Of a stretch of 64,000 nucleotides of DNA, positions 12,550 to 63,807 are shown piece by piece; positions within the stretch are counted from its first letter, which is position 1, and every line of letters begins with the position of its first letter. Source of the stretch: a virus. Taxonomy: Duplodnaviria; Caudoviricetes. Under the pieces are notes generated by a model that worked only from the letters and a program-made list of their open reading frames with translations, was not told the origin of the DNA and made no database searches. The DNA is taken from the IMG/VR virus record IMGVR_UViG_3300027708_000016; one strand, written 5' to 3'. The position numbers were made by a program, and so were the translations under genes.

Positions 12550-13186
12550 AAATGTAGTATAGATTAATCTGGTGCAATGTCAAGAACTTTCTTCTTAATG
12601 TCTTCAAGTTGTTCTTTATCATAACGAGTATGTTGATCCCATTCAGGATCTCCGTAATGATCAAGAAAGTTATTAATTTCCATTAATATACCAAATTTTA
12701 ATACATTGTGAATGAGCCAAACTTCTGCTTCGTGTTGAGTTTCAAACTCTTCTACATCTCTTAAATAAGGCTGAAGAATATAACCAAAATGTTCTACTTC
12801 CCATTCCACTCTATCACCATAAAGATAATGAGTGCTTATTCTAAAGTGACAATCACGATCTTTGTGGTAATCACCAGCAATTACATCATACCAGATTTTA
12901 TTTAGTTCAATTATCTTTTCGTGATTTGTCATTAAAAAATGATATCACAATAAAAATTAAAGTCAATTAAATTTGAAAGTCTTTTGATTTAGATGCTTGT
13001 TTAAGGTTTTTTCTTTTCTTTGCAAGTTTTTTATGTCTTTTTAGCATCTTTCTAAATTCTGGTGAGATCATAAAAAGGAAAGAAACAAACCCTGCTACTA
13101 ATAAAAAAACGGAGAAGCTTGCAATTAAATGTAAGGCTTCTCCGTTCATAATAATACTTATTCTTGAATGTTACGGAATTGTAACA

Positions 13187-47135: not shown

Positions 47136-47741
47136 ATGAACGAAGAAATATGGAAAGACGTAGTAGGTTACGAGGGATATTATGAAGTTTCAAACATGGG
47201 TAACGTAAGATACTTAAAAAGATATAATAAAAAATGCGAACCCCAACTCATGAAAAAATGGACTAGAAATAAATATCCAGCAGTCACCTTCAATATCAAG
47301 AAAAACGGAGATAAAAGAGCAGTACACAGATTGGTAGCAGAATCATTCCTACCAAACCCAGAAAACAAAAAATGCGTCAATCATAAGAATGGAATCAAAT
47401 CAGATAACAGAGTGGAAAACCTAGAATGGTGTACACATTCAGAAAATAATCTCCATGCCTTTCAAACAGGATTACGAATAAATTCTTGGTTAGGTAAGTT
47501 CGGTCCTGAACACAATTGCTATAAGGGAGACATATTGGCATATAAAAATGGTTTACTAGTTTATACACTTAAAGGAAAGAAAAGCATGGATGAATTTGGA
47601 TTATCTTACAATAGCGTTTTAGAGGTTATTAACAAGATACACAAAAAATACAAAGGTTTAATCTTCATAAGACCTTCGGACTATAAGGGAAACATTTCAG
47701 AAATTTCAGAAAGCTTTTCCATCCAAGGTGAACTCTTCTGA
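47136..47741 (+). CDS. NUMOD4-HNH homing endonuclease
   Basis: EIWKDVVGYEGYYEVSNMG; VHRLVAESFLPNP; VNHKNGIKSDNRVENLEWCT.SEN. Confidence 0.93.
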   Translation: MNEEIWKDVVGYEGYYEVSNMGNVRYLKRYNKKCEPQLMKKWTRNKYPAVTFNIKKNGDKRAVHRLVAESFLPNPENKKCVNHKNGIKSDNRVENLEWCTHSENNLHAFQTGLRINSWLGKFGPEHNCYKGDILAYKNGLLVYTLKGKKSMDEFGLSYNSVLEVINKIHKKYKGLIFIRPSDYKGNISEISESFSIQGELF

Positions 47742-47792
47742 AAAACTTCTGAAGACTTGTAACGACTTGTAACGACTTGTAACGACTTGTAA
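47736..47792 (+). repeat. 10-bp tandem array, left border
   Basis: ttctgaaaaac ttctgaagac then (ttgtaacgac)x3; core AACGACTTGT. Confidence 0.9.
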
Positions 47793-47902
47793 AAGAGTCT
47801 TTATAAGAGGTAGCGCACAAACACACCCCCTATAGGGTACTATAAGGAGTACCCCCCTATATTTTGTATACCCCCTATTTCGGGCATTGCCCCCCATATC
47901 AT

Positions 47903-48059
47903 CGTCTTACGCAAAGGGGTCTATGGGGCATTTTTACGGAGGGGTTCTGCGTCTTACGCACTCCGAAAATCCGAGGGCGTTTTAATGAGACGCTGTTGAT
48001 CGTCTTACGCATCGTAGCAACAGGGGCAAAAAGAAACCCGACCCATTTCTGGATCGGGT
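47903..48059 (-). promoter_or_regulatory. Three direct CGTCTTACGC copies + final intrinsic terminator
   Basis: Copies at 47903, 47950, 48001; hairpin ACCCGA..TCGGGT with T-tract on minus strand. Confidence 0.85.
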
Positions 48060-48079
48060 GACTCTTGGAGTTGGATCGA

Positions 48080-48259
48080 CTACTTCTTCTTTGCCTTGGT
48101 GGGTTTGGCTTGGGCTTCGACCATGTCGAGGATGGTGGATAGTCCTCTGATGCACAGGTCACTCATGTTGAGTTCTGGGTGGGCATCGGTGATTGCCTTG
48201 AGACGGATCTTCACATCGACAGGGCAACGGAAGGTGATGGAGGTGTTACGAGCTTGCAT
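48080..48259 (-). CDS. Ribbon-helix-helix (CopG/Arc-like) DNA-binding protein
   Basis: Beta-strand SITFRC, helix PVDVKIRLKAIT, helix NMSDLCIRGL; basic tail; start refined. Confidence 0.7.
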   Translation of the reverse strand: MQARNTSITFRCPVDVKIRLKAITDAHPELNMSDLCIRGLSTILDMVEAQAKPTKAKKK

Positions 48260-48299
48260 TGTTTTGTTTGTGGTGAGGAGGTTGTGCCTCACGAAAGAC

Positions 48300-48469
48300 A
48301 TACTAGGGAACTGCCCTACTCCGTGCAACTACAATCGTGGGAATCTTTGCGTAAGACGCTCATACTATTCTTGGTCTGGGTATCAGCGTCTTACGCAGCA
48401 GTCTGGGGCAACGGGTTGGTGGAGTCATCGGTGCAGAAAAAAACCCCGACCCATTTCTGGATCGGGGTT
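48300..48469 (-). promoter_or_regulatory. Cassette head 1: terminator - GCGTAAGACG dyad - promoter
   Basis: Dyad 48349/48387 (28-nt gap); TTGCAC-17-TAGTAT with -35 20 nt from motif. Confidence 0.85.
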
Positions 48470-48490
48470 GTCTTGGAAGACGCAGTTATA

Positions 48491-48688
48491 TTATCCCATG
48501 ATGGAGCAATACTTCTTGAAGTCTATTACTCCCTTGAGATAGGAAGCGACAGCGACTTGCTGGGCGATGGGGAATCCCATGAGTTCCGCAGCAGTCAGAA
48601 GTTTCCAAGTGGAATACCTCTTTGCACTCTCTTTGGCATCGGTGAGGTTGCCATTGAGAAGGGAGACGATTGTGTTCCTTGGGTTCAT
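48491..48688 (-). CDS. Small hypothetical protein
   Basis: MNPRNTIVSLLNGNLTDAKE... Confidence 0.55.
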   Translation of the reverse strand: MNPRNTIVSLLNGNLTDAKESAKRYSTWKLLTAAELMGFPIAQQVAVASYLKGVIDFKKYCSIMG

Positions 48689-48689
48689 A

Positions 48690-48893
48690 TTACTTGGAGA
48701 CGAAGGGTGTTTGTGCGAAGGAGACATCGTTCCAATGGAAGGAGACGCATCCCCATGAGTTAGCTTCAAAGAAAGCGGCATGGTGGACAACGGATTGATG
48801 TTGCCAGTAGAGGCTAGTAGCGAGGCAGTCCATCACGCAGATGATGCTGATGGTGAGGATGAGGAGGAGTGTTTCGTAGGTGGATGCTTTCAT
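48690..48893 (-). CDS. Small membrane protein
   Basis: N-terminal TM helix. Confidence 0.55.
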   Translation of the reverse strand: MKASTYETLLLILTISIICVMDCLATSLYWQHQSVVHHAAFFEANSWGCVSFHWNDVSFAQTPFVSK

Positions 48894-48931
48894 TTTAGTG
48901 GGTGGTGAGGAGGTTGTGCCTCACGAGTTAG

Positions 48932-49096
48932 AAGGTAGTGAAAGACGATGGAGGATGCAACAAGAATCGTGGGAATCTTTGCGTAAGACGCTGATATTTG
49001 TCAGGGGTATTAGCGTCTTACGCAGCAGTCTGGGGATGACGGATTTGTTGTCGAGGCACAAAAAAACCCCTACCACTCCGAAGAGCAGTAGGGGTT
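48932..49096 (-). promoter_or_regulatory. Cassette head 2
   Basis: Dyad 48981/49014; TTGCAT-17-TACCTT, 20 nt from motif; terminator about 49060-49096. Confidence 0.8.
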
Positions 49097-49114
49097 CCCC
49101 CTCTACTAAAAGTT

Positions 49115-49456
49115 TTAGGCGACTCCGAGGAGGTATTCCAGTTGAGCCATATACTTGTATGGGACGATGAATGCCCATCCTCCCTCGTGATGAGCATACC
49201 CGACTACTCGCACACCCGAAGCCTTGAAGAGGTTCGTGACGCAGACAAAGGAGTTATTGTCCATAGGGCAGATAACTCGCTTGTTGTTTCCCTGTTGAAG
49301 GGTGATGTATGCAGTTCCCAGTTCGCTCACGCCTGTCTTGGCAGTGACGATGATTCGTGCGTTTGGATCTCCGAAGAGATTGTAGTTCCTTCGCTTGCCA
49401 CCCATGTTCCAGTTGAGGATGGAATCATTGATGGTGTTGTTGTTGTATTGGTTCAT
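49115..49456 (-). CDS. Hypothetical protein
   Basis: Start refined to MNQYNN downstream of promoter and leader. Confidence 0.6.
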   Translation of the reverse strand: MNQYNNNTINDSILNWNMGGKRRNYNLFGDPNARIIVTAKTGVSELGTAYITLQQGNNKRVICPMDNNSFVCVTNLFKASGVRVVGYAHHEGGWAFIVPYKYMAQLEYLLGVA

Positions 49457-49493
49457 TTTAGTGGAGGTGAGAGGGTTGTTTCTCACGAATTGG

Positions 49494-49728
49494 ACTATGC
49501 AGGAAAGTGTGAGGCAGGGCAAGAAAAAAGTTTGGGATCTTTTGCGTAAGACGCTGATAGCTCCAAGGATTTTCAATGCGTAAGACGCTGAATCATAACC
49601 AGAAATCTTTTGCGTAAGACGTTGATATCCAAAACATTACTGGGTATTAGCGTCTTACGCAGCAGTCTGGGGGGTCGCCTAACATCCGAAAAAGACACAA
49701 AAAAAACCCCCACCTTTCGGTGAGGGTT
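49494..49728 (-). promoter_or_regulatory. Cassette head 3
   Basis: Motifs 49544, 49578, 49612 (+) and 49651 (-); TTGCCC-17-CATAGT; terminator about 49699-49728. Confidence 0.85.
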
Positions 49729-49750
49729 TCTTGGAAGTTAGTTGGCGATG

Positions 49751-49999
49751 TTAGTTAAGTGACTCGACCAGATCCTTGACCAGATCGACCCATGTGACTT
49801 CCGACTCGGTCTCCCAAGGAAGGGGCGCACCATGTTGATCCCAATACATCTGGAGGTAATGCTCCTTGGTCAGGTTGGGGTTTTGTCCGTCTCCGTTGCA
49901 CCAATCTTCGATCTCATTGTAGACCTTGGTTTCCAGTTCTGGCGACATCTGGCAGATGTTGCGACAGGCGATGTGGAACAGGATGGTTTGCTTTGTCAT
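49751..49999 (-). CDS. Hypothetical protein
   Basis: Single-gene cassette. Confidence 0.6.
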   Translation of the reverse strand: MTKQTILFHIACRNICQMSPELETKVYNEIEDWCNGDGQNPNLTKEHYLQMYWDQHGAPLPWETESEVTWVDLVKDLVESLN

Positions 50000-50037
50000 G
50001 GTAGTGGGTGGTGAGGAGGTTGTGCCTCACAGACATC

Positions 50038-50229
50038 AATCTAGCAGGGTCTCTGGACAGGGCAAGAACTTTCTGAAGAATCTTTGCGTAAGACGCTAAA
50101 ACCTTTTTGGGCAAGAGGTTGCGTAAGACGCTGTAAGTGTTATCGTCTTACGCATCGTAATGCGACACCATGTGTTATTGTAACACGCTGTTGTGGGGAA
50201 ACCCTCACCCTATTTCTAGGATGAGGGTT
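50038..50229 (-). promoter_or_regulatory. Cassette head 4
   Basis: Motifs 50086, 50121, 50144; TTGCCC-16-TG.TAGATT; hairpin CCCTCA/TGAGGG. Confidence 0.8.
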
Positions 50230-50255
50230 CTTGCTATCACCCCACTACGAGTAAA

Positions 50256-50516
50256 TTAGTAAAGGTGTGCTGTGGTCTCTGTCACCTTGTTGTTATTGAT
50301 CTTGTGTTCAAACATGATCTCCTTTGCAAACCCCCTCATGATGCAACGAGGTTGGCGTTTCTGTGCGTGAGTTTCAATATCCACTCCATGAGTCTTGACA
50401 TGGTGGACGATATGACAGACCTTCTCCCAGTGCATGGTAAGGACATTGCGACCTTGCTTGACGGACTCTGCCTTGTAGTAGTGGAAGAAGAAGCGTTTTG
50501 GTTTGAGTGTTTTCAT
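50256..50516 (-). CDS. Hypothetical basic protein
   Basis: FFFHYYK...HVKTH...QPRCIMRG. Confidence 0.6.
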   Translation of the reverse strand: MKTLKPKRFFFHYYKAESVKQGRNVLTMHWEKVCHIVHHVKTHGVDIETHAQKRQPRCIMRGFAKEIMFEHKINNNKVTETTAHLY

Positions 50517-50539
50517 AGTGGTTGTTGATTACGATTAAG

Positions 50540-50758
50540 AGAATACAACAAGCCTGTTGAAGTGCAAGAGAAATCTTCAGAAATCTTTTCAATCTTTGCG
50601 TAAGACGTTGATAGTAAATAATTTGCTAATAACAGCGTCTTACGCACGTGGCAGCACCCCGCTGCGGGTGGACACTCGTGGTAATGCGACACCATGTTTT
50701 GTTTTTTCAAAGTGTGCTATAAAAACAAAAGCCTCCCACCCCGAAGGATGGAAGGCTC
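50540..50758 (-). promoter_or_regulatory. Cassette head 5
   Basis: Dyad 50598/50636; TTGCAC -35 is 30 nt from motif; terminator about 50726-50758. Confidence 0.8.
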
Positions 50759-50781
50759 TTGCTGAAGGGTTGGAGGTTAGT

Positions 50782-51771
50782 CTATGCCACTAGAAGAATC
50801 TGTTCACCCCTTGCTTTGACTCTGTTGGTTTCCTTGTCATCGGTGAGAATGGAGAACCAATCCCTCTTGCTCTCACTAGCAGAACCGAACTCACTGGAAA
50901 CATATTGCTTCCAAGGATTCTTGTCTCCCCCAGAGGATTCATGGGAGAAGTAATCGGTTGCTCCACTGAAGAGATCAGCCATAGTCTTTCCCCTGTTGCC
51001 TTTGCCTGTCTTATAGAGATCCACTACCCTGTCCACCATGTTGATAGTGCGAGTTGAAACCTTTGTATCTGCTTCAAAGGTTGGAGGAGTGAGGATACCG
51101 AAGGTGATTTTCCTTGCTGTCTCCTCTTCACAATCCATGCTTTCCATAGAGTCCATTGCCATTTGGAACTCTCTTGTCACTCCATAGTGCCTGTCGATTG
51201 CCTCACTCATGCCATCCAATCTGTTTGCGGCATTCTTTGTGTGCTTGATTCTCATGTTGAACTCTCCTTTACGAGAGAGTGCAAGGGTGAGGGTGTTCTG
51301 ACACACGATGCAGGTGAGACCAGAGTTGGCAATCAGAGCAGAGATACCACCATGACCCCAAGTAATGTTGAGCATATTCTCATGCTCTCTGTTCCCTGCA
51401 ACAATGTTGTCGGAGAGTTTGATGGAAACAAATACCTTTGAACGAGAGCAGACGCTTCCCAAGGAAACTACCTTGTTCTGGGTTCCAATGAGTGCATCCT
51501 TGATCATGGATAGAACCTGTTCGTTGGTGATGAGACAATACTTGTCACTCACTGGATTGCCAATGGGCAGACCATTATCTAGAGAGACAATCTGTTTGAA
51601 GGGAGTCTCCACTTCATTCTCTCCGACCTTATAGGTGAGAGGGAGGGTGATCATGGGATAGGAGATTTCGCAATCCTCGTCGAGTTTGATTTCGGGCTTG
51701 ACCTTGGTGAGTCCGTGCCATGCTTGTTCGATTCCTACCTGTATGTCTGTGTCTTCAATCATGTGTGCCAT
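50782..51771 (-). CDS. DUF932 (TIGR03299 phage/plasmid-like) protein
   Basis: AWHGL, VSDKYCLITN, LGSVCSRSKVFV, VCQNTL, IKHT.NA, ATDYFSHE; start refined to MAHM. Confidence 0.8.
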   Translation of the reverse strand: MAHMIEDTDIQVGIEQAWHGLTKVKPEIKLDEDCEISYPMITLPLTYKVGENEVETPFKQIVSLDNGLPIGNPVSDKYCLITNEQVLSMIKDALIGTQNKVVSLGSVCSRSKVFVSIKLSDNIVAGNREHENMLNITWGHGGISALIANSGLTCIVCQNTLTLALSRKGEFNMRIKHTKNAANRLDGMSEAIDRHYGVTREFQMAMDSMESMDCEEETARKITFGILTPPTFEADTKVSTRTINMVDRVVDLYKTGKGNRGKTMADLFSGATDYFSHESSGGDKNPWKQYVSSEFGSASESKRDWFSILTDDKETNRVKARGEQILLVA

Positions 51772-51815
51772 CGTTGTGGGTGTCGGTTTGGTCAGTTGAC
51801 TCTTCTGTATTGCTG

Positions 51816-52022
51816 ATAATAGGGAAAACAAATCCATCTGCAAGAAAAATCTTTCAGCTAGGAATAGATTCTTTGCGTAAGACGTTGAAAGTAAATAGAT
51901 GTCCAGATAACAGCGTCTTACGCAGCCATCGAGGGCGGACGGGTTTGGGTGTCGAGTCATCGAGTTTGATCGAGACACAAAAAAAAACCCCCACCTTTCG
52001 GTGAGGGTCTTTGCGTAAGACG
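51816..52022 (-). promoter_or_regulatory. Cassette head 6
   Basis: Dyad 51875/51914, extra motif 52013 abutting terminator; TTGCAG..TATTAT, 31 nt from motif. Confidence 0.85.
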
Positions 52023-52032
52023 CTAGTAGGGT

Positions 52033-52482
52033 CTAGCCTATGGAGATGATGTTATCCATCTGAACCACGAAACAAGGTTTCGGGTTGGGTTTCTTGTTGC
52101 TCTCGGTGAGCATCCCCTGATACTCCTCCTTGGCAACCTCCTTGCCATCCACAAGGTATGTCACCTTGGGTGCTTGGATCACGCCCCCTGTTGCTGGGTA
52201 GAGGCGAAGGTAATCCTTCTCCTTGTGCGTGATGTGGAAAGGGAACTTTGCCCATGTTCCCCAAGGAAGAGGCTCAACTTCCCCCCTCTCCCCACGAGCG
52301 ATTGCCTCCTTCACTTCAGAGAGATTGGCATAATCAATCCCTGCACGAAACGCCCCAGAGGTGATCTTCTCAAGGGTATGCCCCTTGAACTCTTTGGCTG
52401 GCTTGCTCTCCGACTTGAACTCAACATGAACATGCTGTCCAGTGAGTGAACCGACTACCGACATGACTGCTTCTGATTTCAT
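52033..52482 (-). CDS. Conserved phage hypothetical protein
   Basis: RAGIDYANL, LPWGTW, YLRLYP; start refined. Confidence 0.6.
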   Translation of the reverse strand: MKSEAVMSVVGSLTGQHVHVEFKSESKPAKEFKGHTLEKITSGAFRAGIDYANLSEVKEAIARGERGEVEPLPWGTWAKFPFHITHKEKDYLRLYPATGGVIQAPKVTYLVDGKEVAKEEYQGMLTESNKKPNPKPCFVVQMDNIISIG

Positions 52483-52557
52483 CGTAGGTGATGTCTCCAG
52501 TTGTTCGATTGCTCCTGCCCCTCGTAGGTGATGGGTTGAGTCGCTTTCGATATAGTG

Positions 52558-52754
52558 AATGTAGTGGATCAATTCCCAAGGTGCAAGAAAAACCTTCGGA
52601 ATCTTTGCGTAAGACGTTGAAAGTAAAAAGATGTCCGAATAACAGCGTCTTACGCAGTTTCAGGAGGCACGGACGGGTTCAGGGTTAGGTTTCAGGATTG
52701 GATGAAGGCACAAAAAAACCCCCACCGATTTCTCGGTGAGGGTTGCGTAAGACG
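52558..52754 (-). promoter_or_regulatory. Cassette head 7
   Basis: Dyad 52607/52646, extra motif 52745; TTGCAC-17-TACATT, 20 nt from motif. Confidence 0.85.
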
Positions 52755-52762
52755 CTGGGAGT

Positions 52763-53416
52763 CTAGTGTTGCTTGTAATTCACTAGGTAGACATTCTTAT
52801 CCCAACAGGCTCGACATGATCCGCAGACATTCCCTTGTGAGGGTGCAGGGCAGGTATAACCAACAGCAGAGGAAACGCCCGACACTTGAACGCCTAGTCT
52901 TTTTGCGATTGCATCGGGTGTCTTTCCGTCAATCATAAGAGCAGAGAGACGAATGCAGAGATTTTCTGGGATAGTGTTTCCCTCTTTCTCTATGTAGTCG
53001 CTGACGATGGAGTATTCCCTAGTAGGAAGCCAGAACTTGATAAAGGGAAGATTCTTTGCCACTTGGCAAATCTTTTCCAAGTGCCAAGTGCCTTGCAAGT
53101 CTCCGCTATCGTGCCAGCGAAAGAATCCGCTTTTCTCTTTCTTGGAAATCAGAAAGGTGATTGCCTCCGTCCACCTAGGATCTAAAAGGGAGGCAAAACG
53201 CTTTTCCATAGCTTCAATGACATTCTGGAATATGTAACGCCCCTTGCAAGCATAACACTTCTCGCAAACCGAACCGACGATTTTGCGTAGGATGCTTCCG
53301 ATCTTGCAACGAAAAGCAGGGGTGTTGTATGAGTAGCCTGGCATTTTTGAAGGTGCCGACAGGGTGTGAACGATTGCCTCCGCTTGCTTGGCAGTTTTTA
53401 AGGTAGTGGTTGTCAT
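52763..53416 (-). CDS. GP88-like putative Fe-S protein
   Basis: SKMPGYSY, C..G......VCEKCYA, FRWHDSGD, WLPTRE, CPA......CGSCRACW. Confidence 0.8.
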   Translation of the reverse strand: MTTTTLKTAKQAEAIVHTLSAPSKMPGYSYNTPAFRCKIGSILRKIVGSVCEKCYACKGRYIFQNVIEAMEKRFASLLDPRWTEAITFLISKKEKSGFFRWHDSGDLQGTWHLEKICQVAKNLPFIKFWLPTREYSIVSDYIEKEGNTIPENLCIRLSALMIDGKTPDAIAKRLGVQVSGVSSAVGYTCPAPSQGNVCGSCRACWDKNVYLVNYKQH

Positions 53417-53424
53417 AGGGCATC

Positions 53425-53675
53425 AACATAGCAAAGTCGTTGGAGGGTGCAAGAAAAATCTTCGGAATCTTTGCGTAAGACGCTAATACTCCAATCCTAG
53501 AATCCCCCAGAAGGATTCCCCCTACGGGGGAATCCTTTATGCGTAAGACGTTGATAGTAGGATATTTATAAATAACAACGTCTTACGCACAGGTCTGGGG
53601 TTGCCCGTAGTAAGACGAATTCTTACTCATAAGGCAAAGAAAAACCCCTTGAATAGGGAATATGTATTCAAGGGG
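53425..53675 (-). promoter_or_regulatory. Cassette head 8
   Basis: Motifs 53473, 53541, 53579; 12-bp hairpin aaggattccccc/gggggaatcctt between them; TTGCAC..TG.TATGTT, 20 nt from motif. Confidence 0.85.
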
Positions 53676-54539
53676 TAAGGCAAACTCCTACCGACTAGGA
53701 GTTTATGTTGTTTTTCTTCTATGCATTTTCGTCTTCTGGATGTTTTTCCCTGCAATAAGTTGCTACTCCTGCATCATAACCCCACTTGTATTGAATGTGG
53801 GAGATGGCATTCTTTTCTCCATCGTAAGGATTATTCTCTACTCCTTGGATATACCCATCGTTGAAACCACGGACATATGATTTGGTATTTGGGTTTGGGT
53901 GTGTCATAATCCGTGGATCTTGATGTGGTGTTGGATTGCCTCTACCAATTCCTTTAGTTTATTATTTGGAACTGATAGTGCGTGTTCAAACCTTTCATCA
54001 TCATGCCTAATGTTGAAGTTTGTATATTCATCAAATTCTTCGGAGATTTCGATGACAAGATCTTTTTTTTCTTGGTATCCTATATCCATAATGATACTGG
54101 TTTTGATTTTCATTTAGTGTATTATTGGTTGGGTTTGTTTTTTTGTGGTAATGCCGCACCATGTTCTATTAAAACACACTTTGCATTTGAACTTTAGTTT
54201 GTATTGAGAGCTTTGATATCTTTACCCACAGAGAAGGAGATGAGTAAAGAACCCAATACTACAAGCATTGGATACTTTGACCAGTTCTCTTCTTCATGGA
54301 GGGCATCCAATAGATTCTTGATCTTCTGGGTTTGTTGTTTTGTCATATCTTTGTATTGTCCACAACATTGTCAAACTTGTCAAGCAACTCCTGTAGATCA
54401 GGATCGTTGACGTAAACTCTCTCAATGTATTCATAGAGTTCATTTGCTGTATCGATTATATTTATTGTTTTTGTTTGTAGATGAAAGTATTCACGAATCA
54501 TTGCTTTCCTCGTGAGATCTTTGTATTGGAGTTCTGTCA

Positions 54540-55151
54540 TTATTCATCATCCTCGTTTTCCTCTTGGCAGTCAAGGAAATACTGGACATCCAACTCCTCC
54601 TTCAAATGTTCTGGGCAATCATCAATATCATCATAGCAGTTGTCACTCTCTGATCCATCTGCATTGACAAAGTATTCTCCTCCGAACATCCAACCCTCAT
54701 CGTAGTAACTCATACGAAGGGACTCACCCGTAAGCTTTGCAAGTTCTCTGATGACATTAATCGGAGGACTCCATGCCGTTTGAAATCCAACGTCTGAAAG
54801 ATCATCAATCTCGTTGAAACCATCTTCCAAGGTATAACAAGAGTATGCATTCCATTTGGTGTCCCAGTTGGCAACACTCCAATCATACCAAGATTTGAAT
54901 CCATAATCCTTTTCATTCTGCTCTTGTAAAAGATCATGTGCTTTCTGTCTTGCTTCTACTTCTTCTGGTGTCCTTTCCTTGGTGATCTCTTCAACGGAAG
55001 ATGAGTAACAAGTCTTTAGGATTCCTTCTGGCATGGGGAGGATCTTGTTGAAGTCAATACTCTTGCCATCATCTGTAAGATAAGGTTTGATGATTGATCC
55101 GATGGTCTTTCCACTAGTGCAGGAAAGGAGGTTGGTGCAATGGTTAGGCAT
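54540..55151 (-). CDS. DUF1281/YubB ferredoxin-like domain protein
   Basis: MPNHCTN, WYDW..NWDTKWNA, FQTAWSPP, YYDEG..F.G. Confidence 0.82.
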   Translation of the reverse strand: MPNHCTNLLSCTSGKTIGSIIKPYLTDDGKSIDFNKILPMPEGILKTCYSSSVEEITKERTPEEVEARQKAHDLLQEQNEKDYGFKSWYDWSVANWDTKWNAYSCYTLEDGFNEIDDLSDVGFQTAWSPPINVIRELAKLTGESLRMSYYDEGWMFGGEYFVNADGSESDNCYDDIDDCPEHLKEELDVQYFLDCQEENEDDE

Positions 55152-56652
55152 AGTGTTATTGGGTTGGTTGTTTTGGAGTATTGAATGGTATGATTAAAGG
55201 TTGGTCATTGGCAAGAAGAAAATCTGTAATCATCTGGATTATTTTATTCTTGACTTTATCTTTGCAATGCTCTGGACGAAACTGGATAGTTCTTCTACCT
55301 TGGAAATAATGATTGATTCCGAACTTACCAATATGTTGGTGAACTTCGGTTCTTTTAAATCTTTCCAATTCCTTGGAAGGAAGTTCACCATCTTCAAAGA
55401 TGATTGTCCAATGAACAGATCTTTGTTCATGCAAAGGATCATCAATAAATTCGTGGGAGATTCTTCTGCTATGTATTCTCATTCTGTTGGTATTGGGTAG
55501 GTTTGATTGATAAAGATCTCCACTTCACGATCAAAGGGAGTCATTTGGTTTTTCTTTGCGAAATTGATTCTCACCATATCTCTCTTGATAATGCGAGTCC
55601 ACTTGTTATTGTTCTTCCAACTCTTTCTAGAGTCAATAATCTGATACCATTCCTCGTTAAGATTAGATGTAACAGACGGAGAGATGTTCACATTAAACCA
55701 TCTGTTCTCCTCGCTAAAATGTTTAGCAAGGTTTCCTTGTGCTGGTTTGCTGGTGAAGGTTATCATGATAGTCTCGTATTGTCTTTCATTTGTTGTTGGG
55801 TAGGGTGTCGATTGATTTGAAGGATTGCTCTACTAGTTCATAGAAGTAATACCTGCTGTGCATCAGATCAGTTGTATAGAGATCCTTCATCAAGTCAAGT
55901 GCTTTCTTTTTGTCCTTGGGAATATCTCCTGTCGAGTATAAGTGCTGAAGCATTTCCTTATCACTATACACATGGATAAGGTAATGCGTTGAGTCTCTAG
56001 AAACTTTCTTGGGTTTCTTTGGTTTGGTGGGTTTGGGTTCTTTCATAGTGATCCGTATTTGTTGTAATAGCAACCTACTACAAACAACAGCAATAGGACA
56101 AGCATTATCTGTTCTCGATTTCGGGTAAGACGAGGAAAGTCTTCAAGTGTTTGAAGGCACTTCCAAGGCAGGAATCCAAAGAAAGGAAACCATACTCGGT
56201 TTGCGTAAGACCTTGAACATCATCGTATTCGTATCCATAAAGATTGTGTTCTGTGAAGAAAAGGATGGTAAGAGTTGGAATATGTTTTTGCATTTGTTTT
56301 TTTGTTGAGATGGTTTCTAGGTTGCCCCCCTCTCTTGAACCACTAAGAGAGGGAGGACTTCCCTATGAACTCTATTGAGCCACTACTCTCAATAGATACC
56401 ACCAAATTTATATTATAGGTTTTTAATGATTTGTCAAGAATCTTTGACTATTAGTAAAGATTGTATTTGTAATTTCCGATCTGGTTATTGTTAAACAAAC
56501 GAGTGTGCCAGTTGCTGTGAGTCGTCTCCATGATATGCATGAAGATGAGAGAATTCTTTGGGTTGACTTCCTTTCCGAAGAAACGAAGTAGTAGTGTGAT
56601 TGGATCTTTCATTGGACTTATAGTATGATTGTTTTTGGGTTTGGTGTCAATA

Positions 56653-57234
56653 TCAATCTTTGGATTTCTTTGTAGCGTAAGACTTCCAGATCGTCAAATC
56701 CAAATCGGCAGGAGTCATCTGGTGAATAATTGCTTCTTGCAAGAACAACTTCTCAATCTCTGCGTATTTCTTTTTCGGAGGAGTTGCTTTAGGAATACTC
56801 TTATATCCCTTCTCACTCATCCACTTCAAGATGTGTGTATCAAGCACAGCAACATTGGCATCTGGTCGAGAGTGAAGGATAAAGAAACGAGCAGTCTTTG
56901 ATCCGATACCTTTGATGCTCTCCAGTTGTTCGATGGTGACCTTGGACAAACGACCTTTGAACTTGAGGATCTCCTTGAATGCATGACCGATCCTTTTGTA
57001 TTGACCTAGCTTAAACTCCTTCATCTGGATCTCAAGCCACCCCATGCTAGACAGACGAGAAATAAGAGCAAAGGGTTTGCCTTTCTCCTTATGCATACAA
57101 TGTTTGAGGAAAGCATCTAGCTTCCTTGCCTGTTGCTCTGCTCCTTTGCCAGCAACGAGGATTGCGAACATAAGGAACTCTTCCAGTTCAGCTTCGGTGC
57201 GATTATAGTTGGTGATGGTGGTTGGTGTGATCAT
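56653..57234 (-). CDS. HhH-GPD base-excision DNA glycosylase-like protein
   Basis: LESIKGIGSKTARFF (HhH), VAVLDTHILKW, DLTIW. Confidence 0.85.
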   Translation of the reverse strand: MITPTTITNYNRTEAELEEFLMFAILVAGKGAEQQARKLDAFLKHCMHKEKGKPFALISRLSSMGWLEIQMKEFKLGQYKRIGHAFKEILKFKGRLSKVTIEQLESIKGIGSKTARFFILHSRPDANVAVLDTHILKWMSEKGYKSIPKATPPKKKYAEIEKLFLQEAIIHQMTPADLDLTIWKSYATKKSKD

Positions 57235-57239
57235 AGGTA

Positions 57240-57653
57240 TTAGAAACTAGCGATTGCTTTGATTGTGTCAAGTCTTTTTGATTCGACTTTCCAACTATCT
57301 GTAATTCTCTGGAGAGGAGTATTTGTCAGATGGTCGTATATGATGCCATCAATGATAGCAAAGGCATGACCACGACGACGAACCAAGTAGCGACCAGTTG
57401 GGTATCTTTCAAGGAATTTTTGGATGGTTATAGGTTTGTGTTTCATCTTGCGAAGACTGATACCATGCTTCTTTGCTGTCAAGGCTAATTTTTCGGTATG
57501 AAATCCACGACCAGTTTTTCTTCCTGCGGCTTTTCCTATTTCAAAAGCTTCATTATAGGGAATGCCAGCAGATGTGGACAATGCACAGATGGTGCAGTTG
57601 TTGTTGTCTTTGATACCAGAATCTTTCTCTGGTGTAACTCTGATGTGTTTCAT
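57240..57653 (-). CDS. Conserved phage protein with Cys...His pattern (possible papain-like fold)
   Basis: DNNNCTICALS..., GHAFAIIDG; start refined. Confidence 0.5.
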   Translation of the reverse strand: MKHIRVTPEKDSGIKDNNNCTICALSTSAGIPYNEAFEIGKAAGRKTGRGFHTEKLALTAKKHGISLRKMKHKPITIQKFLERYPTGRYLVRRRGHAFAIIDGIIYDHLTNTPLQRITDSWKVESKRLDTIKAIASF

Positions 57654-57682
57654 TGGTAGTAGTTTGGTTTGGTTTGGAAATA

Positions 57683-57822
57683 TGCCAAGAACTTTCTGCA
57701 CCAACCTTTGCGTAAGACGTTGAAAGTAAAATATATTTAAATAACAACGTCTTACGCAGTTTACGGGCTGCGGCTGCGGGAACCTTTCGAGGCACAAAAA
57801 AACCCGTCGAAATCGACGGGTT
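57683..57822 (-). promoter_or_regulatory. Cassette head 9
   Basis: 13-bp perfect dyad 57710/57748; terminator ACCCGTCG-AAAT-CGACGGGT; promoter weak. Confidence 0.75.
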
Positions 57823-57829
57823 AAAATTG

Positions 57830-57901
57830 TGGGATCGTCGAGACTCGAACTCGAAACCAATTCGTTAAAAGCGAACTGCTCTACCATTGAGCTACGATCC
57901 C
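57830..57901 (-). tRNA. tRNA-Lys(UUU), no encoded CCA
   Basis: GTTCG-CTTTTAA-CGAAT. Confidence 0.92.
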
Positions 57902-58144
57902 ATCGGTATCCTTATATCTTTGGATAAATTGTATTTTTAAGCAATGCCAAAATATCCTCGTTCAATACCTGAAGGAGTATAGGCGCATCAAAAAAAGCAA
58001 AAAGGTGTTCACCAACCAGAAAAACCCTATACTTACCTTTGTATTCATTTTTAAGTTCGACAACGAACTCCTGAGACATTTGACTAGAGATATGTCTTGC
58101 AGTATTCATTTGTCTATTGTAAAGATTTTTTAATTTATTGTCAA

Positions 58145-58219
58145 TGGTGCTTTCAGTAGGAATCGAACCTACATTTGATCTTTAGAAGAGATCAGTCCTA
58201 TCCGTTGAACGATGAAAGC
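58145..58219 (-). tRNA. tRNA-Arg(UCU)
   Basis: GATCT-CTTCTAA-AGATC; CCA. Confidence 0.92.
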
Positions 58220-58227
58220 ATATTGAC

Positions 58228-58300
58228 TGCCCTCGGAGGGATTCGAACCCCCAACCAATCAGTTATGAGCCGACTGCTCTGACCATTGAGCTACAAGGGC
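58228..58300 (-). tRNA. tRNA-CAU (Ile2 or elongator Met)
   Basis: GTCGG-CTCATAA-CTGAT; canonical D- and T-loops. Confidence 0.88.
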
Positions 58301-58823
58301 GAAGGTTCTAAAGTTCTATTGGAATGTCATGGAGTTCTGAACCAATAGGAATGTTTTTATTGTCTGTTCCATTGTTTCCGAACAAGTCATCTGTTGGTTC
58401 AAAGATCCCCCTTTTTGGAGAATAGTAATCATCCTTTGAAGTGATTAGAGATTCAACCCAACTCTCATCTTCCGCCCAAGGGTTGCTCTTTGGAAGATGA
58501 ACCCTGTATGCGTAAGACATAGTTAGGAGAGTAGGAACTCATAAAGGTTTCCAACAATCAGGCGATTGTCATTGGTGATTAGTGCATTCTCCAACTCATC
58601 GTAGAAAATGACTGCTTTGTTTCCACCGATAACAATGTCTGGTAGACCTTCATCGTAGGTTGCATCTCCGTTCCAGTAATCGACTTCAATATCGAAAACT
58701 TTGTTTCCTGCTTCATCGAGAGTATAACCTTGGATGTTTTTTGCTTCCTTGATCTTCTTGACAATCATCTGGGTGTTTGTCAGAAGTTGCTCTCCATCTT
58801 CATCAATTATTGTTGACATTGTA

Positions 58824-59915
58824 TTAGTTCTTCTTTGTGAATTTACCAAGGGCATCCCTCAAGTTGTGGAAGAGAGATCCATCTGGCTTCTTGCCATACT
58901 GGTTGTCATCAGAGTGACAAGATCCACCACAACAAGTTGTCTCCTCGGTTTGAGTGTATCCACACTTCTTGTCAAGGTAATCATTGAAGGTTGGCTCATC
59001 ACAAAGACCAGCATCTTCAACATCCCTGCATGACCCACAACGAGATTTCTCGTAGTCATCATAAGTGTTAGTGAGATCAGTTCCACAGATAGTGCAGAGT
59101 GCTGGCTCATCGTTGTCCTTGTCCTCGTAGTCTCCACCATCGGAGGAGTAGAGATCGGAGTCGAATCCGTTCTCTCCACGACCCAACTTCTCCCTCCAAT
59201 TCTCGGTGTATTCAGCGATCACCTCATACTTGCAAGTGCGACCCTTGGTGTTGTTGTAGTCAGCAGGGATAGCAACTACATCCTTGGGATTGATCTTGAC
59301 GATCATGGTCTTGCCTCCGTTGCTGTCAGAGAAGTGAGGGAGATACTTGATGGAGCAGAAGTGCAAACCATAAGAGCAAGTGCGATCCTTGTCCTCATCC
59401 ACCTTGTAGCGAGGCATCTCACACACCTTGCCAACAGAGTTGTCAAATGATCCAGAGTGAATGTCCTTGTAGTCAGCACGAACATTCTTGAAGGCGAGGA
59501 AGAATCCATCCTCGGTGATAGGCAACTCTCCAACATCAAGGAAGTCATACAACTCATTGACTGCACGATAGGAGGAGTTCTCCATCAAGTTGTAGAGGAA
59601 ATTGAGCAAAGGCTTGAATGGCAAGTCCTGTTGCATGAAGGAGATCACCCTCTTGGTGAGAGTATTGTGAACTGGTTCTCCCTTATAGACGATGATGCCA
59701 TCAAGGATCTGGACATCGGTGTTGAGAACGAAGTCCCTCACCTTACGAGACAGATCGACTGCATCAAGGAAAGCATCCCAATTCTGTGCTTTGACAGCAT
59801 CAAGAGCTTTGGTGTAGTTTGGGTGAGTTTGGTCAATCGTGTAGATTGCCCCGTTGATACAAGCAGAGATTTTTCCCTGTCCTGTAATGGTGACTGCATT
59901 GTTGGTGTTATTCAT
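58824..59915 (-). CDS. rIIB: RIIB-like protein
   Basis: HPNY, FL.NLMEN.S..AV.ELYDFL, PITEDG.FLA.K.V, DNSVG, CS.GLH.CS..Y, K.RTC.YEV. Confidence 0.92.
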   Translation of the reverse strand: MNNTNNAVTITGQGKISACINGAIYTIDQTHPNYTKALDAVKAQNWDAFLDAVDLSRKVRDFVLNTDVQILDGIIVYKGEPVHNTLTKRVISFMQQDLPFKPLLNFLYNLMENSSYRAVNELYDFLDVGELPITEDGFFLAFKNVRADYKDIHSGSFDNSVGKVCEMPRYKVDEDKDRTCSYGLHFCSIKYLPHFSDSNGGKTMIVKINPKDVVAIPADYNNTKGRTCKYEVIAEYTENWREKLGRGENGFDSDLYSSDGGDYEDKDNDEPALCTICGTDLTNTYDDYEKSRCGSCRDVEDAGLCDEPTFNDYLDKKCGYTQTEETTCCGGSCHSDDNQYGKKPDGSLFHNLRDALGKFTKKN

Positions 59916-59953
59916 ATAGTGATACTACTTTGTTTTGTTTGGGTTGTCAATAC

Positions 59954-61936
59954 TTATTTTTCTAGTTTCTTTGCGAGGAGAAGATACATCTGTTGATCGT
60001 CTCCATAAGAACCTAACAGATTAGAGAGAAGGAAGTCAAGTGCTTTATCTGCCATCTTGAAAGTATCTCCCATAACCTTTTGATCCAAGAAGGGAAGAAC
60101 ATTCTGGACTTTCTCATACTTATTACCAAGTGACTTGAGCTTGACAAGCATCTGCTTAATGAGGTTGGAGTCATCAAGGTCTTTATACTCTTTATGAGCA
60201 ACAATGTCATTGATCCTGTGCCTTGCGTAAGACGATATAACCCCTACCTCCTCCATGTCAACCCAAGTAAGGTCATGCTCCCTGTTGAACCATTCAATGA
60301 AGTCTTGACTTCCCCTTGCCTTGAGCTTCTTTGCCTCCTTCTCGGTGACAAGAACAACCTCATTGATATTGATAGTAAATGCTTGACAATAGGTGCGAAG
60401 GCGATCCTTGTCTTGGATCAGGCGAAGATTATTGAGCTTGACATTCAACTCCCATGTCTTTCCCTTGAGAATATAATACTTGGGGATATTTGTGCATGAT
60501 GGTTCGATTGTCCTTGACTCCCAAGAGACATTGTAGGTAGCCCCAATCTCGTAGCAAGTGATGTCCTCTTTAGCCTTGATAACGATTGTTCCGTTCTTGA
60601 GCTTCCTCTTGGCAGTAGGAGAAGGCAAAGAGGAAGCAGATTTGAATACATCGGGGAAACCAACCTCCAACATGGACTGCTTCTGTTCTTGGGTGAACAA
60701 GATAGCACAGGTATCACTTGTATCACGAATGAGCATCTTGATACGAGCAAATGGATTCTTACATCCTCCATCATCGTAATACCATTCAAACTTCTTATCG
60801 AAGCTGAAGGATGTGCTGGTGTTCACCTGCTTCCTGTATGAGTAGCGAGAGAAGGACTGAATAGAAGTCTTGAGAATATCCTTGACAAACTTGTGGGGTT
60901 CACTGATGTCGTAACCTTTATACACGACATCCTTCATCTCAAATGCTTGGTTGCCATAGAAGGAGAACCTCTCTTGGAAAGCTCCTAATGCCCTGATGCT
61001 GTCAAGGATATTATCCTTGGATACGATCTGATCCTTTGCCTTGTGTTTGATCTCTGTCAAGACTTTTTCCATCTTGTCATTGATAGCCTTGATAGTGGCA
61101 TCGTCATAGGAGAGATGCTCACGACTTGGAGCAAAGTCCAACTCACCCATAGCAAACTTGAGAACCACACCCTTGCGAACAATCTGGTTATACTTGTCAG
61201 CAACCTTGTAGTGGTCGATAGGATAGGTGACTCCACCCATGATTGCAAATGCCTCCCATTGTGTAGAGGAATCCAAGAACATCCAATCCTCACCAGAGAA
61301 CATAGGTTTCTCCTCTGACCAATAGCACACTCCACCAGAGGTAGTTGGCTTGACATCGAAGAAACGAAATGCTTTCTGGACTGATTTGATAAACTCATTG
61401 AAGTCTTTCTCCTTGACAGGGATCTGGACAGCAACTCCGTTTGACTCGCTAGTGTTCTCCTGACTCATCAGAGCAATCGTAGGGTTGCCATCTTGAGCAA
61501 AGTAGGCATTGTAGATTCTCTTGACTCCATCATGGATAGAGGTGACAGAGAAGTTGTCCGTATAACAGAAGGGAGACTTTGACCCAAGACCCAAGCATCC
61601 AATCTGATCGTTGGTGTTGGTCTTTGTGGACTCAAAGTAGGTGGAGTAAATGTCGTAGATGTTCTGGTGAGAGATCCCTGTTCCAAAGTCTTGAATGGTG
61701 ATCCAAGGCTCAAGAGAGTTGGGAAGGTGAATATGGAAAGGTTGATCCTTCTTACCAGAGGCAACCATTGAGTCATTAGCGTTGCATCCCAACTCCCTAA
61801 CGATTGCCAGAGGCTTATCGGAGTAGAGGTCAGAGAGGATCTGGAAGGCTTTACGAGAGGACTTCATCTTGAAGGAGGAAGTCTCGGTGATGTTTCCGAT
61901 CTGTTCGATTTGATTAGGTGTGTCGAGTAGTTTCAT
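59954..61936 (-). CDS. rIIA: RIIA-like protein (N-terminal GHKL/HATPase fold)
   Basis: KAFQILSDLYSDKPLAIVRELGCNA.D, QDFGTG, STK..TNDQIG.LGLGSKSPF.YTD; upstream of rIIB. Confidence 0.93.
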   Translation of the reverse strand: MKLLDTPNQIEQIGNITETSSFKMKSSRKAFQILSDLYSDKPLAIVRELGCNANDSMVASGKKDQPFHIHLPNSLEPWITIQDFGTGISHQNIYDIYSTYFESTKTNTNDQIGCLGLGSKSPFCYTDNFSVTSIHDGVKRIYNAYFAQDGNPTIALMSQENTSESNGVAVQIPVKEKDFNEFIKSVQKAFRFFDVKPTTSGGVCYWSEEKPMFSGEDWMFLDSSTQWEAFAIMGGVTYPIDHYKVADKYNQIVRKGVVLKFAMGELDFAPSREHLSYDDATIKAINDKMEKVLTEIKHKAKDQIVSKDNILDSIRALGAFQERFSFYGNQAFEMKDVVYKGYDISEPHKFVKDILKTSIQSFSRYSYRKQVNTSTSFSFDKKFEWYYDDGGCKNPFARIKMLIRDTSDTCAILFTQEQKQSMLEVGFPDVFKSASSLPSPTAKRKLKNGTIVIKAKEDITCYEIGATYNVSWESRTIEPSCTNIPKYYILKGKTWELNVKLNNLRLIQDKDRLRTYCQAFTININEVVLVTEKEAKKLKARGSQDFIEWFNREHDLTWVDMEEVGVISSYARHRINDIVAHKEYKDLDDSNLIKQMLVKLKSLGNKYEKVQNVLPFLDQKVMGDTFKMADKALDFLLSNLLGSYGDDQQMYLLLAKKLEK

Positions 61937-61962
61937 GGGTTGTTTGGTTGGTGTTGAAGATG

Positions 61963-62210
61963 ACAATATACAAAACCATTCCCCATGCAACAAAAATTTT
62001 CACCAACTTTTGCGTAAGACGCTGTTATTAGATGTCCAGTTACCTTGCGTAAGACCTTGAAAGTAGTCATATAATACTAACAACGTCTTACGCAGCGGCG
62101 GATAGAACGCAAATGTTTAGAATTTTTGTTGGTTTGGTTTCTTACATTGTTTTTGAAAGTAATGTAAAAAACAAAAAAAACCCCAACCACCGAGCGAGGT
62201 GATTGGGGTT
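61963..62210 (-). promoter_or_regulatory. Cassette head 10
   Basis: Motifs 62012, 62047 (variant), 62084; TTGCAT..TATTGT, 21 nt from motif; terminator about 62175-62210. Confidence 0.8.
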
Positions 62211-62971
62211 TGCTCTTGCAACCGAATTGTTGCTTATTTCTTCTTCCTATTACAAGTCCACTTACCGAGGCTGTCACGACGATTGTGATAGCGGCACATG
62301 AGCTTCATCTTGCCAAACTGATTGACTGCTCCAAGAAGGCTATACCGAGAAGTATTGATCTCCTCCATGACTACTGCCTTCTTCACATCAGTTGGAAGAG
62401 TATTGAATCCCCCGATATACGAGAAATCTTTAACTACGATTGTGTTATTGGTCATTATTATTTCACCTCCTTTTGTTTGTATTGAAAAATTATCCTACAA
62501 AAGAACCATCCTTGTTCATGGATATGCCCCTTGCCTTTGCTCTCTTGTCAAGTCTCTTGGCACGACAGGTTGCAATCTCTTCCCTCTCCTTTTGTGAAAG
62601 GTTAAGAAGATCATACTTGGTTTCCTTGTCTAGCTTGTGCCAGACGGATTCCGTTTTCATTACATTTTTAGCTCTCCAGATCATTTATATATTATGCACT
62701 AGGTGCGTTAGAATGTCAATAGTATTGTTTTTATTGTTTTAGGGATGGAAGTCCTCTGGAAGTCCATTAGGTAACTGCTCATGCCTCGTCCTCCTCTACT
62801 TCTTCCAAGGTTTCAACCTCGTATTCAGCATTGCCAGATCCCCATAGTGCCTCCATAGCGATTTCAATGGCATTATCGTATGCCTCCTCTTCGTTGTTTG
62901 CCTCCACATCAAAAGACATGGAATCATAGGTTGTGCGAGTGACTTCGACTTTGTATGTTTTCTTCATAGGT

Positions 62972-63313
62972 TTAGGGTTCTAGGTTGATGTAGATTTGCT
63001 CTTTGTTGAGATCCCACAGCATATCGACAAATGCTTTCCATTCCTCCTTGGTGCAAGTATCTATTTCCTCCCCATCCTCATCGTTAATACCAGAAGAGAA
63101 CCACTCATAAGCATCGTCAATGAAACGAGCGAATCTCTCCCCTGCTATCAGAGTCAGATTGTTATCCCCATAGGAGAAATCTGGATTTGCACTCCCTAGC
63201 ATATCCCAGAACCAATCCCATTCCGCAGGGACTAGATCGGTTAGGTCTACTACTTTTACTTCTCTTGGTGTTGGTGTTGTCATGTGTCTAGCTTTTAGTT
63301 GTTCTTCAGCCAT
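62972..63313 (-). CDS. Acidic hypothetical protein
   Basis: D/E/W-rich; FSYGDNNLTL. Confidence 0.6.
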   Translation of the reverse strand: MAEEQLKARHMTTPTPREVKVVDLTDLVPAEWDWFWDMLGSANPDFSYGDNNLTLIAGERFARFIDDAYEWFSSGINDEDGEEIDTCTKEEWKAFVDMLWDLNKEQIYINLEP

Positions 63314-63483
63314 TGGCGAAGAGGTTTGACTCCCAAATCCCCCCTGTGGAAGAGATGGAATGGTTTGGTTGGATCGGAAGGGAACAAGGAGAACTTGTTA
63401 CCCTTACGGACTATTCTGATCCCCCTACTGATAGCAAGATCAATAAGGGAATCAAACTCTTTGGAGTGGTGTTTGCGGCTCAT
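63295..63483 (-). CDS. Small protein with HicA-like (dsRBD-type) pattern
   Basis: LIDLAISRGIRIVRKGNKFSLFP...HRGDLG..PLRQWLK; start refined to ATG at 63483. Confidence 0.4.
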   Translation of the reverse strand: MSRKHHSKEFDSLIDLAISRGIRIVRKGNKFSLFPSDPTKPFHLFHRGDLGVKPLRQWLKNN

Positions 63484-63493
63484 AGCGACTCTC

Positions 63494-63723
63494 ACAATAT
63501 AGAAAACATTCCACAGGTCAAACATTTTTCTGACCTATTTTTGCGTAAGACGTTATTACTAGTGCCGCCAGAAGTTTGCGTAAGACGTTGTTACCCAGAC
63601 AAAGGATTTTACAAAGTCTTTTAACATCTTACAATTACTTGCAATGTCTTCAGATGTCTTCAGAAGTCTTTCGCCTCGGAGCGAATCATTTCTGAAATAT
63701 CCACTATATTTATCGTCTTACGC
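63494..63723 (-). promoter_or_regulatory. Cassette head 11 (first promoter of the module)
   Basis: TTGACC-16-TATTGT, 21 nt from motif 63543; further motifs 63578, 63714. Confidence 0.8.
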
Positions 63724-63807
63724 AAATCTTCAGAAAGCCTTACAACAATTTACAAAATTTTGCCATGCAAGTTTTTGTAAGAATTTGTAGGTTAAACTAA
63801 TTCTAAT

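Follow-up and report, generated by a model that had tools for sequence, protein, structure and literature searches.

The RHH gene and its cassette at the end of the early block

The window, the whole 64,000 nt stretch of DNA that was analysed, is from an uncultured freshwater T4-like phage (IMGVR_UViG_3300027708_000016). It contains rIIA (59954-61993, minus strand) and rIIB (58824-59915, minus strand), together with 17 tRNA genes and ribonucleotide reductase. From about position 47,900 to the end of the window the GC content is 0.40 to 0.49, compared with approximately 0.32 elsewhere, and all of the credible genes of this GC-richer block run leftward. In each of the related phages examined (L113, L115, L124, and L130), the GC content of the rII early block exceeds that of the remaining genome by 6 to 12 points. 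The GC step is therefore a property of the block rather than evidence of recent import. The phage collection contained no DNA resembling that of the early block, and searches of IMG/VR for close relatives with rIIA and DUF932 gave no match.

The final minus-strand gene of the GC-richer block, a place already given to it in the preliminary description of this DNA, encodes a 59 residue protein with a predicted ribbon-helix-helix (RHH) fold. The features of this end of the block are:

47745-47878 (no strand assigned): repeats at the block boundary, consisting of a 10 bp tandem array (47745-47794) and three copies of ACCCCCTAT (47825-47878)
47901-47913, 47948-47960, and 47999-48011 (no strand assigned): three co-oriented 13-mer sites, with one mismatch each and without a promoter-like element
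48036-48059 (minus): intrinsic terminator of the RHH unit, 10 pairs and a T-run, kept in the variant L001
48080-48259 (minus): RHH CDS (P0001), 59 aa, an ORF with predicted fold and dimer and with purifying selection in comparison with L001
48273-48292 (minus): 5' leader box GTGAGGCACAACCTCCTCAC, a 20 nt hairpin with a 6 bp stem, common to three neighbouring cassettes
48300-48328 (minus): weak sigma-70-like promoter, TTGCAC (48323-48328) and TAGTAT (48300-48305) separated by 17 nt
48348-48360 (no strand assigned): proximal 13-mer site from the motif scan, centre at about -61
48385-48397 (no strand assigned): distal 13-mer site from the motif scan, in inverted orientation, centre at about -98
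48442-48469 (minus): predicted intrinsic terminator of the preceding cassette, isolating the RHH unit

The 59 residue ORF is real. It reads from an ATG at 48259 to a stop codon at 48080 on the minus strand, as had been quoted earlier. Longer versions starting at the ATG at 48301 or the TTG at 48328 are unlikely, because both begin inside promoter hexamers. Comparison of the window with L001, in which the gene is an 88% identical variant, shows 8 synonymous codon changes and 5 that are non-synonymous, therefore the frame is under purifying selection. Residues 1 to 12 of the protein are unchanged. The unit is monocistronic and bounded by two terminators, and the idea that the gene has a cassette to itself holds, this being a self-contained unit with terminator, 13-mer dyad, weak promoter, and leader. 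The three further sites said to follow the gene are likewise present; they are spaced by 51 and 47 bp, not contiguous, and have the same spacing in L001. The description of the promoter as dyad-flanked is correct in part. The gene has its own dyad and its own promoter, but the promoter element is downstream of the dyad rather than between its arms.

Transcription of the RHH unit is predicted to start near 48293, and 19 nt separate the proximal 13-mer from TTGCAC. The promoter is below the 9-of-12 threshold of the consensus scan, and was read from the cassette heads rather than called by the scan. The hairpin of the leader has a fold energy of -8.2 kcal/mol and a z of -1.6, so that the structure is weakly supported. 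The GTGAGGCACAACCTCCTCAC boxes are found on the minus strand of the four distal cassettes, at 48273-48292, 48905-48924, 49467-49486, and 50011-50030, one copy being a variant. They contain a CCUCC run and are just upstream of C/A-rich start regions that have no Shine-Dalgarno sequence.

In the RHH cassette alone, the promoter spacer is filled by a palindrome, TAGGGCAGTTCCCTA (48304-48318, minus), for which the counterpart in L001 is TGGGGCAATTCCCTA. A copy with one mismatch is present at 47882-47892, just past the three terminal sites. The palindrome could be a private operator; its 3 matches in the window, compared with 0.9 expected, are weak statistics.

The tandem array at the block boundary is made up of four 10 bp units of the ACTTGTAACG type. 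An HNH endonuclease gene (47136-47741, plus strand) adjoins the boundary repeats, with AT-rich DNA beyond. These repeats may serve as an origin or a packaging site, or may mark a boundary.

Predicted fold and dimer of the 59 residue protein

It is highly probable that the 59 residue protein has an RHH (Arc/MetJ/CopG) fold. In the AF2 model of the monomer (pLDDT 71), residues 1 to 13 are extended and are followed by helices at residues 14 to 26 and 32 to 50. RHH proteins make up nearly all of the best 40 chains in an exhaustive structural search, and the leading RHH chains align over 44 to 56 residues of the protein. The best match is CopA_SO (Z 5.8, rmsd 1.9 Å over 48 residues), with omega second (Z 5.7). 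Arc (Z 4.1) and ArtA (3GXQ, Z 3.7) are among the matches, as are ParD2, TacA, PutA, TraM, NikR, AmrZ, and SvtR, and also PrpA and MazE, where the match is to type II antitoxin DNA-binding domains. The Foldseek list is dominated by RHH proteins as well, but with E-values that are not significant for a domain so small.

Prediction of the homodimer gave a score of 0.46, compared with 0.00 for the best of 3 controls. The mark for this score is reached by 20 of 30 proteins solved as one-chain pairs and by 1 of 23 solved single chains, and, solved structures being well stocked with RHH dimers, a pass may reflect likeness to these and is not proof. The runs have a contact agreement of at least 98% and a partner pLDDT of at least 73. 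Contacts between residues 9 and 9, 8 and 10, 7 and 11, and 6 and 12 form an antiparallel ribbon of residues 6 to 12, and a 39-39 contact places helix B against helix B. In this register N5, S7, T9, and R11 face outward, and I8 and F10 inward. Read from the sequence and the dimer register, N31-M32-S33 form the G/N-x-S/T turn before helix B, after which there is a lysine-rich tail of 9 residues. R4, R11, S33, and D34 are invariant across the 8-member family. The AlphaFold model, the structural matches, and the dimer ribbon all agree, bearing out the RHH pattern that had been recognised in the preliminary description. The protein is very probably an RHH homodimer of the DNA-binding kind, the binding of DNA being expected from the modelled fold.

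Sequence searches were far less productive. No Pfam family was matched at E up to 1 and no PDB sequence match was found; PHROG 19583, of unknown function, is a weak match only (E 0.0065), and a look-alike in the Atlas, DUF3950 at 0.92, is only a lead. Word-based and exhaustive sequence searches returned just the identical protein and the 88% variant as relatives. Residues 8 to 36 also match seven stretches of P0003, a metagenomic protein of 3760 aa, in the exhaustive HMMER search (E 5.7e-6, 31% identity). P0003 may be built of repeats that include RHH-like units, or the match may be spurious.

Many of the best structural matches (CopA_SO, ParD2, TacA, PrpA, and MazE) are DNA-binding domains of type II antitoxins, and early phage blocks often hold counter-defence genes. 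The protein might then be antitoxin-like, working mainly through binding to another protein, for example by neutralising a host toxin or a defence effector. These matches, however, cover only the RHH DNA-binding domain that all such proteins share. The gene forms a one-gene transcription unit, promoter and terminator included, with no adjoining toxin gene, and the 9 residue tail provides no toxin-binding extension. Standing alone between two terminators, and with so short a lysine-rich tail on its product, the gene is unlikely to have an antitoxin role.

The 13-mer sites and their distribution in related phages

With up to 2 mismatches allowed, there are 37 matches to the 13-mer TGCGTAAGACGCT in the window, compared with 0.34 expected, and 36 of these are within 47,901-63,724. 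Each 13-mer contains GCGT and ACGC half-sites 7 bp apart, and the sites lie 32 to 51 bp from one another. Eleven cassette heads follow one plan, in which TTGCA is at a fixed distance from the proximal site. The interval from the end of this site to TTGCA is 19 to 20 nt in nine heads and 29 to 30 nt in two. The centre of the proximal site is near -61 or -71, positions that are one helical turn apart, and the distal site is approximately 37 bp further upstream.

Several other identities for the sites were considered and rejected. The 4 bp stem and AAG loop are suggestive of N4-type hairpin promoters, but the phage is T4-like and each head is followed by a sigma-70-like element. NtcA boxes do not fit, the spacing being GTA-N9-TAC rather than N8 and found in some copies only. 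Against integron attC sites, R'/R'' cores are absent and an integrase was not observed. A promoter inside the dyad would have a -10-like TACTWT but no usable -35. A purely structural hairpin, of RNA or DNA, is at odds with the 15 of the 37 sites that are solitary or in direct orientation.

A scan of IMG/VR with the 14-mer CGTCTTACGCAAAG found single chance-like matches only, and one with the L118-type dyad found no match. The metagenome dyad scan returned this lineage and, in addition, GC-rich contigs in which the core, GGTGCGTAAGACGCACCCTAC, is part of long hairpins. In four such contigs of 57 to 63% GC (L104, L106, L109, and L111) long perfect hairpins, GGTGCGTAAGACGCACCCTAC...GTAGGGTGCGTCTTACGCACC, hold the 13-mer core. 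They were judged to be unrelated to the phage and are probably bacterial REP-like elements.

Related phages were gathered through their DUF932 protein and sorted into lineages A to D. Lineage A consists of the window and the 88% variant (L001, L002), and both the exact motif and the RHH gene are kept. Few lineages carry both features, and in the two sub-lineages of A the ribbon and the motif are both identical. Their co-occurrence is uninformative because the two sub-lineages are too close.

Lineage B (L113/L114/L124 and L118/L119) has many block ORFs that are 50 to 92% identical to those of the window, and in G001/L124 rIIA is 80% and DUF932 67% identical. The heads have the same layout with other site words, TTGGGTAAAAT and TTAGGTAGAAT, and short contigs have intermediate words, TAGGTAAGACGTT in L122 and TGTAAGACCTTAT in L120. 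This graded series across lineages suggests that one homologous reader has co-evolved with the sites. The position of cassettes is not fixed, since the 67 aa/65 aa cassette is before DUF932 in lineage B and after it in the window.

G001, an IMG/VR record of 121.6 kb that is about 54% complete, spans the whole rII block. Of its 13 TTGGGTARAAT sites, 12 are in this block (29.8-44.9 kb), and the RHH family profile finds nothing in the record. Nor is an RHH-family gene detectable in the lineage B block from rIIB to HNH, that of L113, L114, and L118 included, although the rapid divergence of small RHH genes means that one could go unnoticed in relatives. No DNA-binding family was found with Pfam among 36 ORFs of lineage B and 6 lineage-specific ORFs, a negative that is uninformative because the RHH protein itself has no Pfam match. 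An ORF of 196 aa (L114:3787-4374 and L118:3255-3842) is 98% identical between these two lineage B phages, absent from the window, and without a family match. As one of a small number of genes specific to lineage B, it is a possible candidate for the reader of the sites in that lineage.

In lineages C and D (L115, L116/L117, L123, and L127) DUF932 is 47 to 53% identical. A gene for an RHH-like protein of 60 to 66 aa is directly upstream of DUF932 in all of these and in the P0050 contig, and the profile-profile comparison of the window RHH protein with these DUF932-adjacent proteins gives a probability of 71% (P 3.7e-5). The RHH protein belongs to a small orphan family, usually encoded immediately upstream of DUF932 in related freshwater T4-like phages. 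The family is new and often at the end of the early block, while the fold itself is known. In L117 (5805-7232), L115 (9380-10993), and L123 (9860-11295) the RHH gene is preceded by a conserved basic ORF of about 44 codons, of the MKIKPLP... type, and the basic ORF, RHH gene, and DUF932 look as if they form a three-gene operon served by a single conserved promoter region.

The early promoters of lineages C and D are ordinary TTGACA-N17-TAATAT promoters or have unrelated words. No 13-mer sites like those of the window were found in L115, L117, L123, or L127. In the C lineages the ribbons differ and dyads are absent. The ribbon of L127 is close to that of the window, and no window-like site was found in its block, even with 3 mismatches allowed. 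About 1.3 kb downstream of DUF932 in L127 (IMGVR_UViG_3300023245_000006, 12266-12830) there are about nine or ten direct copies of a 37 bp repeat, CTAACAATAGAGTTTAGAGAATGAATATGATTGAGAG, with variable spacers of 17 to 34 bp. This looks like a CRISPR-like mini-array.

The association with DUF932 raises the possibility that the RHH protein is an accessory regulator tied to this gene, once the autoregulator of the small-ORF/RHH/DUF932 operon, since moved by cassette shuffling and still controlling, or cooperating with, the DUF932 unit. The repeated placement of the two genes side by side in the relatives is what speaks for it. In the window, however, 2.5 kb and four cassettes separate them, there is nothing private in the head of the DUF932 cassette, and lineage B keeps DUF932 without the RHH gene. 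Such a continuing tie is quite unlikely.

Candidate roles of the RHH protein

The preliminary description had proposed the RHH protein as the natural binder of the 13-mer repeat. The distribution in relatives is against this. The cassette-site layout is kept in G001, which is close enough to have an rIIA of 80% identity, with no match to the RHH family in 121.6 kb. A relative with the motif retained and no RHH gene detected has thus been found in the nearest available form, its site word being different and its record about 54% complete. More generally, the layout occurs without the RHH gene and the RHH family occurs without the layout. On the sequences compared, a link between the RHH protein and TGCGTAAGACGCT is not supported. 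The suggestion of a master switch for the early genes is disfavoured by the same distribution, and nothing points to tethering or segregation of the incoming DNA; a ParA family was not among the matches of the block ORFs that were scanned.

If the RHH protein were nevertheless the reader, it would bind TGCGTAAGACG(C/T)T sites, with two dimers probably placed on the GCGT/ACGC half-sites, and feed back on all of the cassette promoters including its own. This would be a shut-off timer or a concentration-dependent switch, and the three promoter-less sites would act as a sink or a boundary. Of about 31 block ORFs, it alone has a recognisable sequence-specific DNA-binding fold, and its gene is under the same type of cassette head, from which autoregulation would follow. 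The exact motif and the RHH gene are both confined to lineage A, with the ribbon residues invariant in the 100% and 88% variants, and half-sites 7 bp apart suit adjacent RHH dimers, as on the omega heptads. The incompleteness of G001, and the shifting of cassettes between relatives, also speak for this reading. Set against this are the lineage B phages G001, L113, and L118, which have the layout with related words and no RHH-family gene, the RHH homologues found where such sites are absent, and L127, with its similar ribbon and no window-like sites. The helical phasing at -61 or -71 fits an activator in contact with RNA polymerase, already present at infection, better than a repressor produced by these very promoters. 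Early promoters need an activator at the moment of infection, and a product of the same promoters cannot supply it. In addition, at 32 to 51 bp the sites are too far apart for the usual cooperativity between RHH dimers. Taken with the comparative data, this role is doubtful.

A variant of this reading is that the RHH cassette is a mobile plug-in specificity module that in this lineage replaced the ancestral reader of the heads, with all of about 12 early promoters re-coded afterwards to its 13-mer and other readers and words retained by the sister lineages. If this were true, one protein of 59 residues would set the address code of the whole early regulon, including its own gene and the terminal three-site boundary. 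Such a replacement is unlikely.

The reading preferred here, with a probability of about 0.5, is that the RHH protein is an accessory early regulator with a narrower target, and that another factor reads the 13-mer sites. The RHH homodimer would be an early product of a self-contained cassette of the standard type, placed at the far end of the rIIA/rIIB block. It would be a passenger of the cassette system, transcribed from the same type of head as its neighbours. Its two-stranded ribbon, with N5, S7, T9, and R11 outward, would act on a narrower DNA target, which may be its own promoter or another site in the phage or host. The 13-mers would be read by a different, co-evolving factor that is shared with the relatives that have no RHH gene. 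We infer that the RHH target is other than the 13-mer; the ORF, cassette anatomy, fold, dimer geometry, and distribution come from in silico analysis. The accessory-regulator reading has its own difficulties. No alternative target was found beyond the weak spacer palindrome, no other block protein has a recognisable sequence-specific DNA-binding fold, and the RHH gene and the exact 13-mer do occur together in both of the sampled sub-lineages, with the strand residues unchanged.

Comparison with known systems

Arc and Mnt of phage P22 and CopG of pMV158 are the classical RHH autorepressors, of 45 to 60 residues and obligate dimers. The window protein is like them in size, in its strand-helix-helix fold, in its predicted dimer, and in its phage or plasmid origin. 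It differs in that no Pfam RHH model matches it, and the operators of Arc, Mnt, and CopG overlap their own promoters, whereas the repeated sites here are upstream, at about -61 and -98.

The omega protein (w2) of pSM19035 (PDB 1IRQ, 2BNW; PMC4627068, PMC9499535) is also a small RHH dimer. As a global regulator it reads short repeats, direct or inverted, at several promoters, with activation or repression as the outcome (PMC4627068). The T-x-R motif by which its strand reads DNA has a counterpart in T9-F10-R11 of the window protein, although there is no sequence similarity between the two. Omega binds contiguous 7 bp heptads and has a ParA partner (delta), whereas the 13-mers here are isolated, 32 to 51 bp apart, and no ParA was seen. 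Binding of these sites by the window protein is hypothetical and comparatively disfavoured.

ArtA of pSK41 is an RHH protein proposed as the master regulator of many promoters of a mobile element, and its binding has been shown experimentally (PMC2777438). For the window protein, binding to multiple promoters is a hypothesis that the comparative data lean against.

The cassettes themselves are most readily compared with the PeSL cassettes of T4-type phages, composite terminator/promoter heads that flank small, variable early ORFs (PMC2839356, PMC4122927). Here too there is a hyperplastic region next to rIIA and rIIB, and cassette order varies between relatives. The difference is that the heads in the window add a pair of sharply conserved, lineage-specific 13-mers that are phased to the promoter. 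This points to a protein reader, which is absent from the PeSL description. Some reader must co-evolve with the lineage-specific site words of the cassette heads. The RHH protein does not pass the distribution test among the closest relatives available, so the reader should now be sought more widely, among proteins conserved in all of the site-bearing lineages, virion-delivered proteins, and host factors. Its identification would explain how the early regulon remains coherent while its genes are shuffled.
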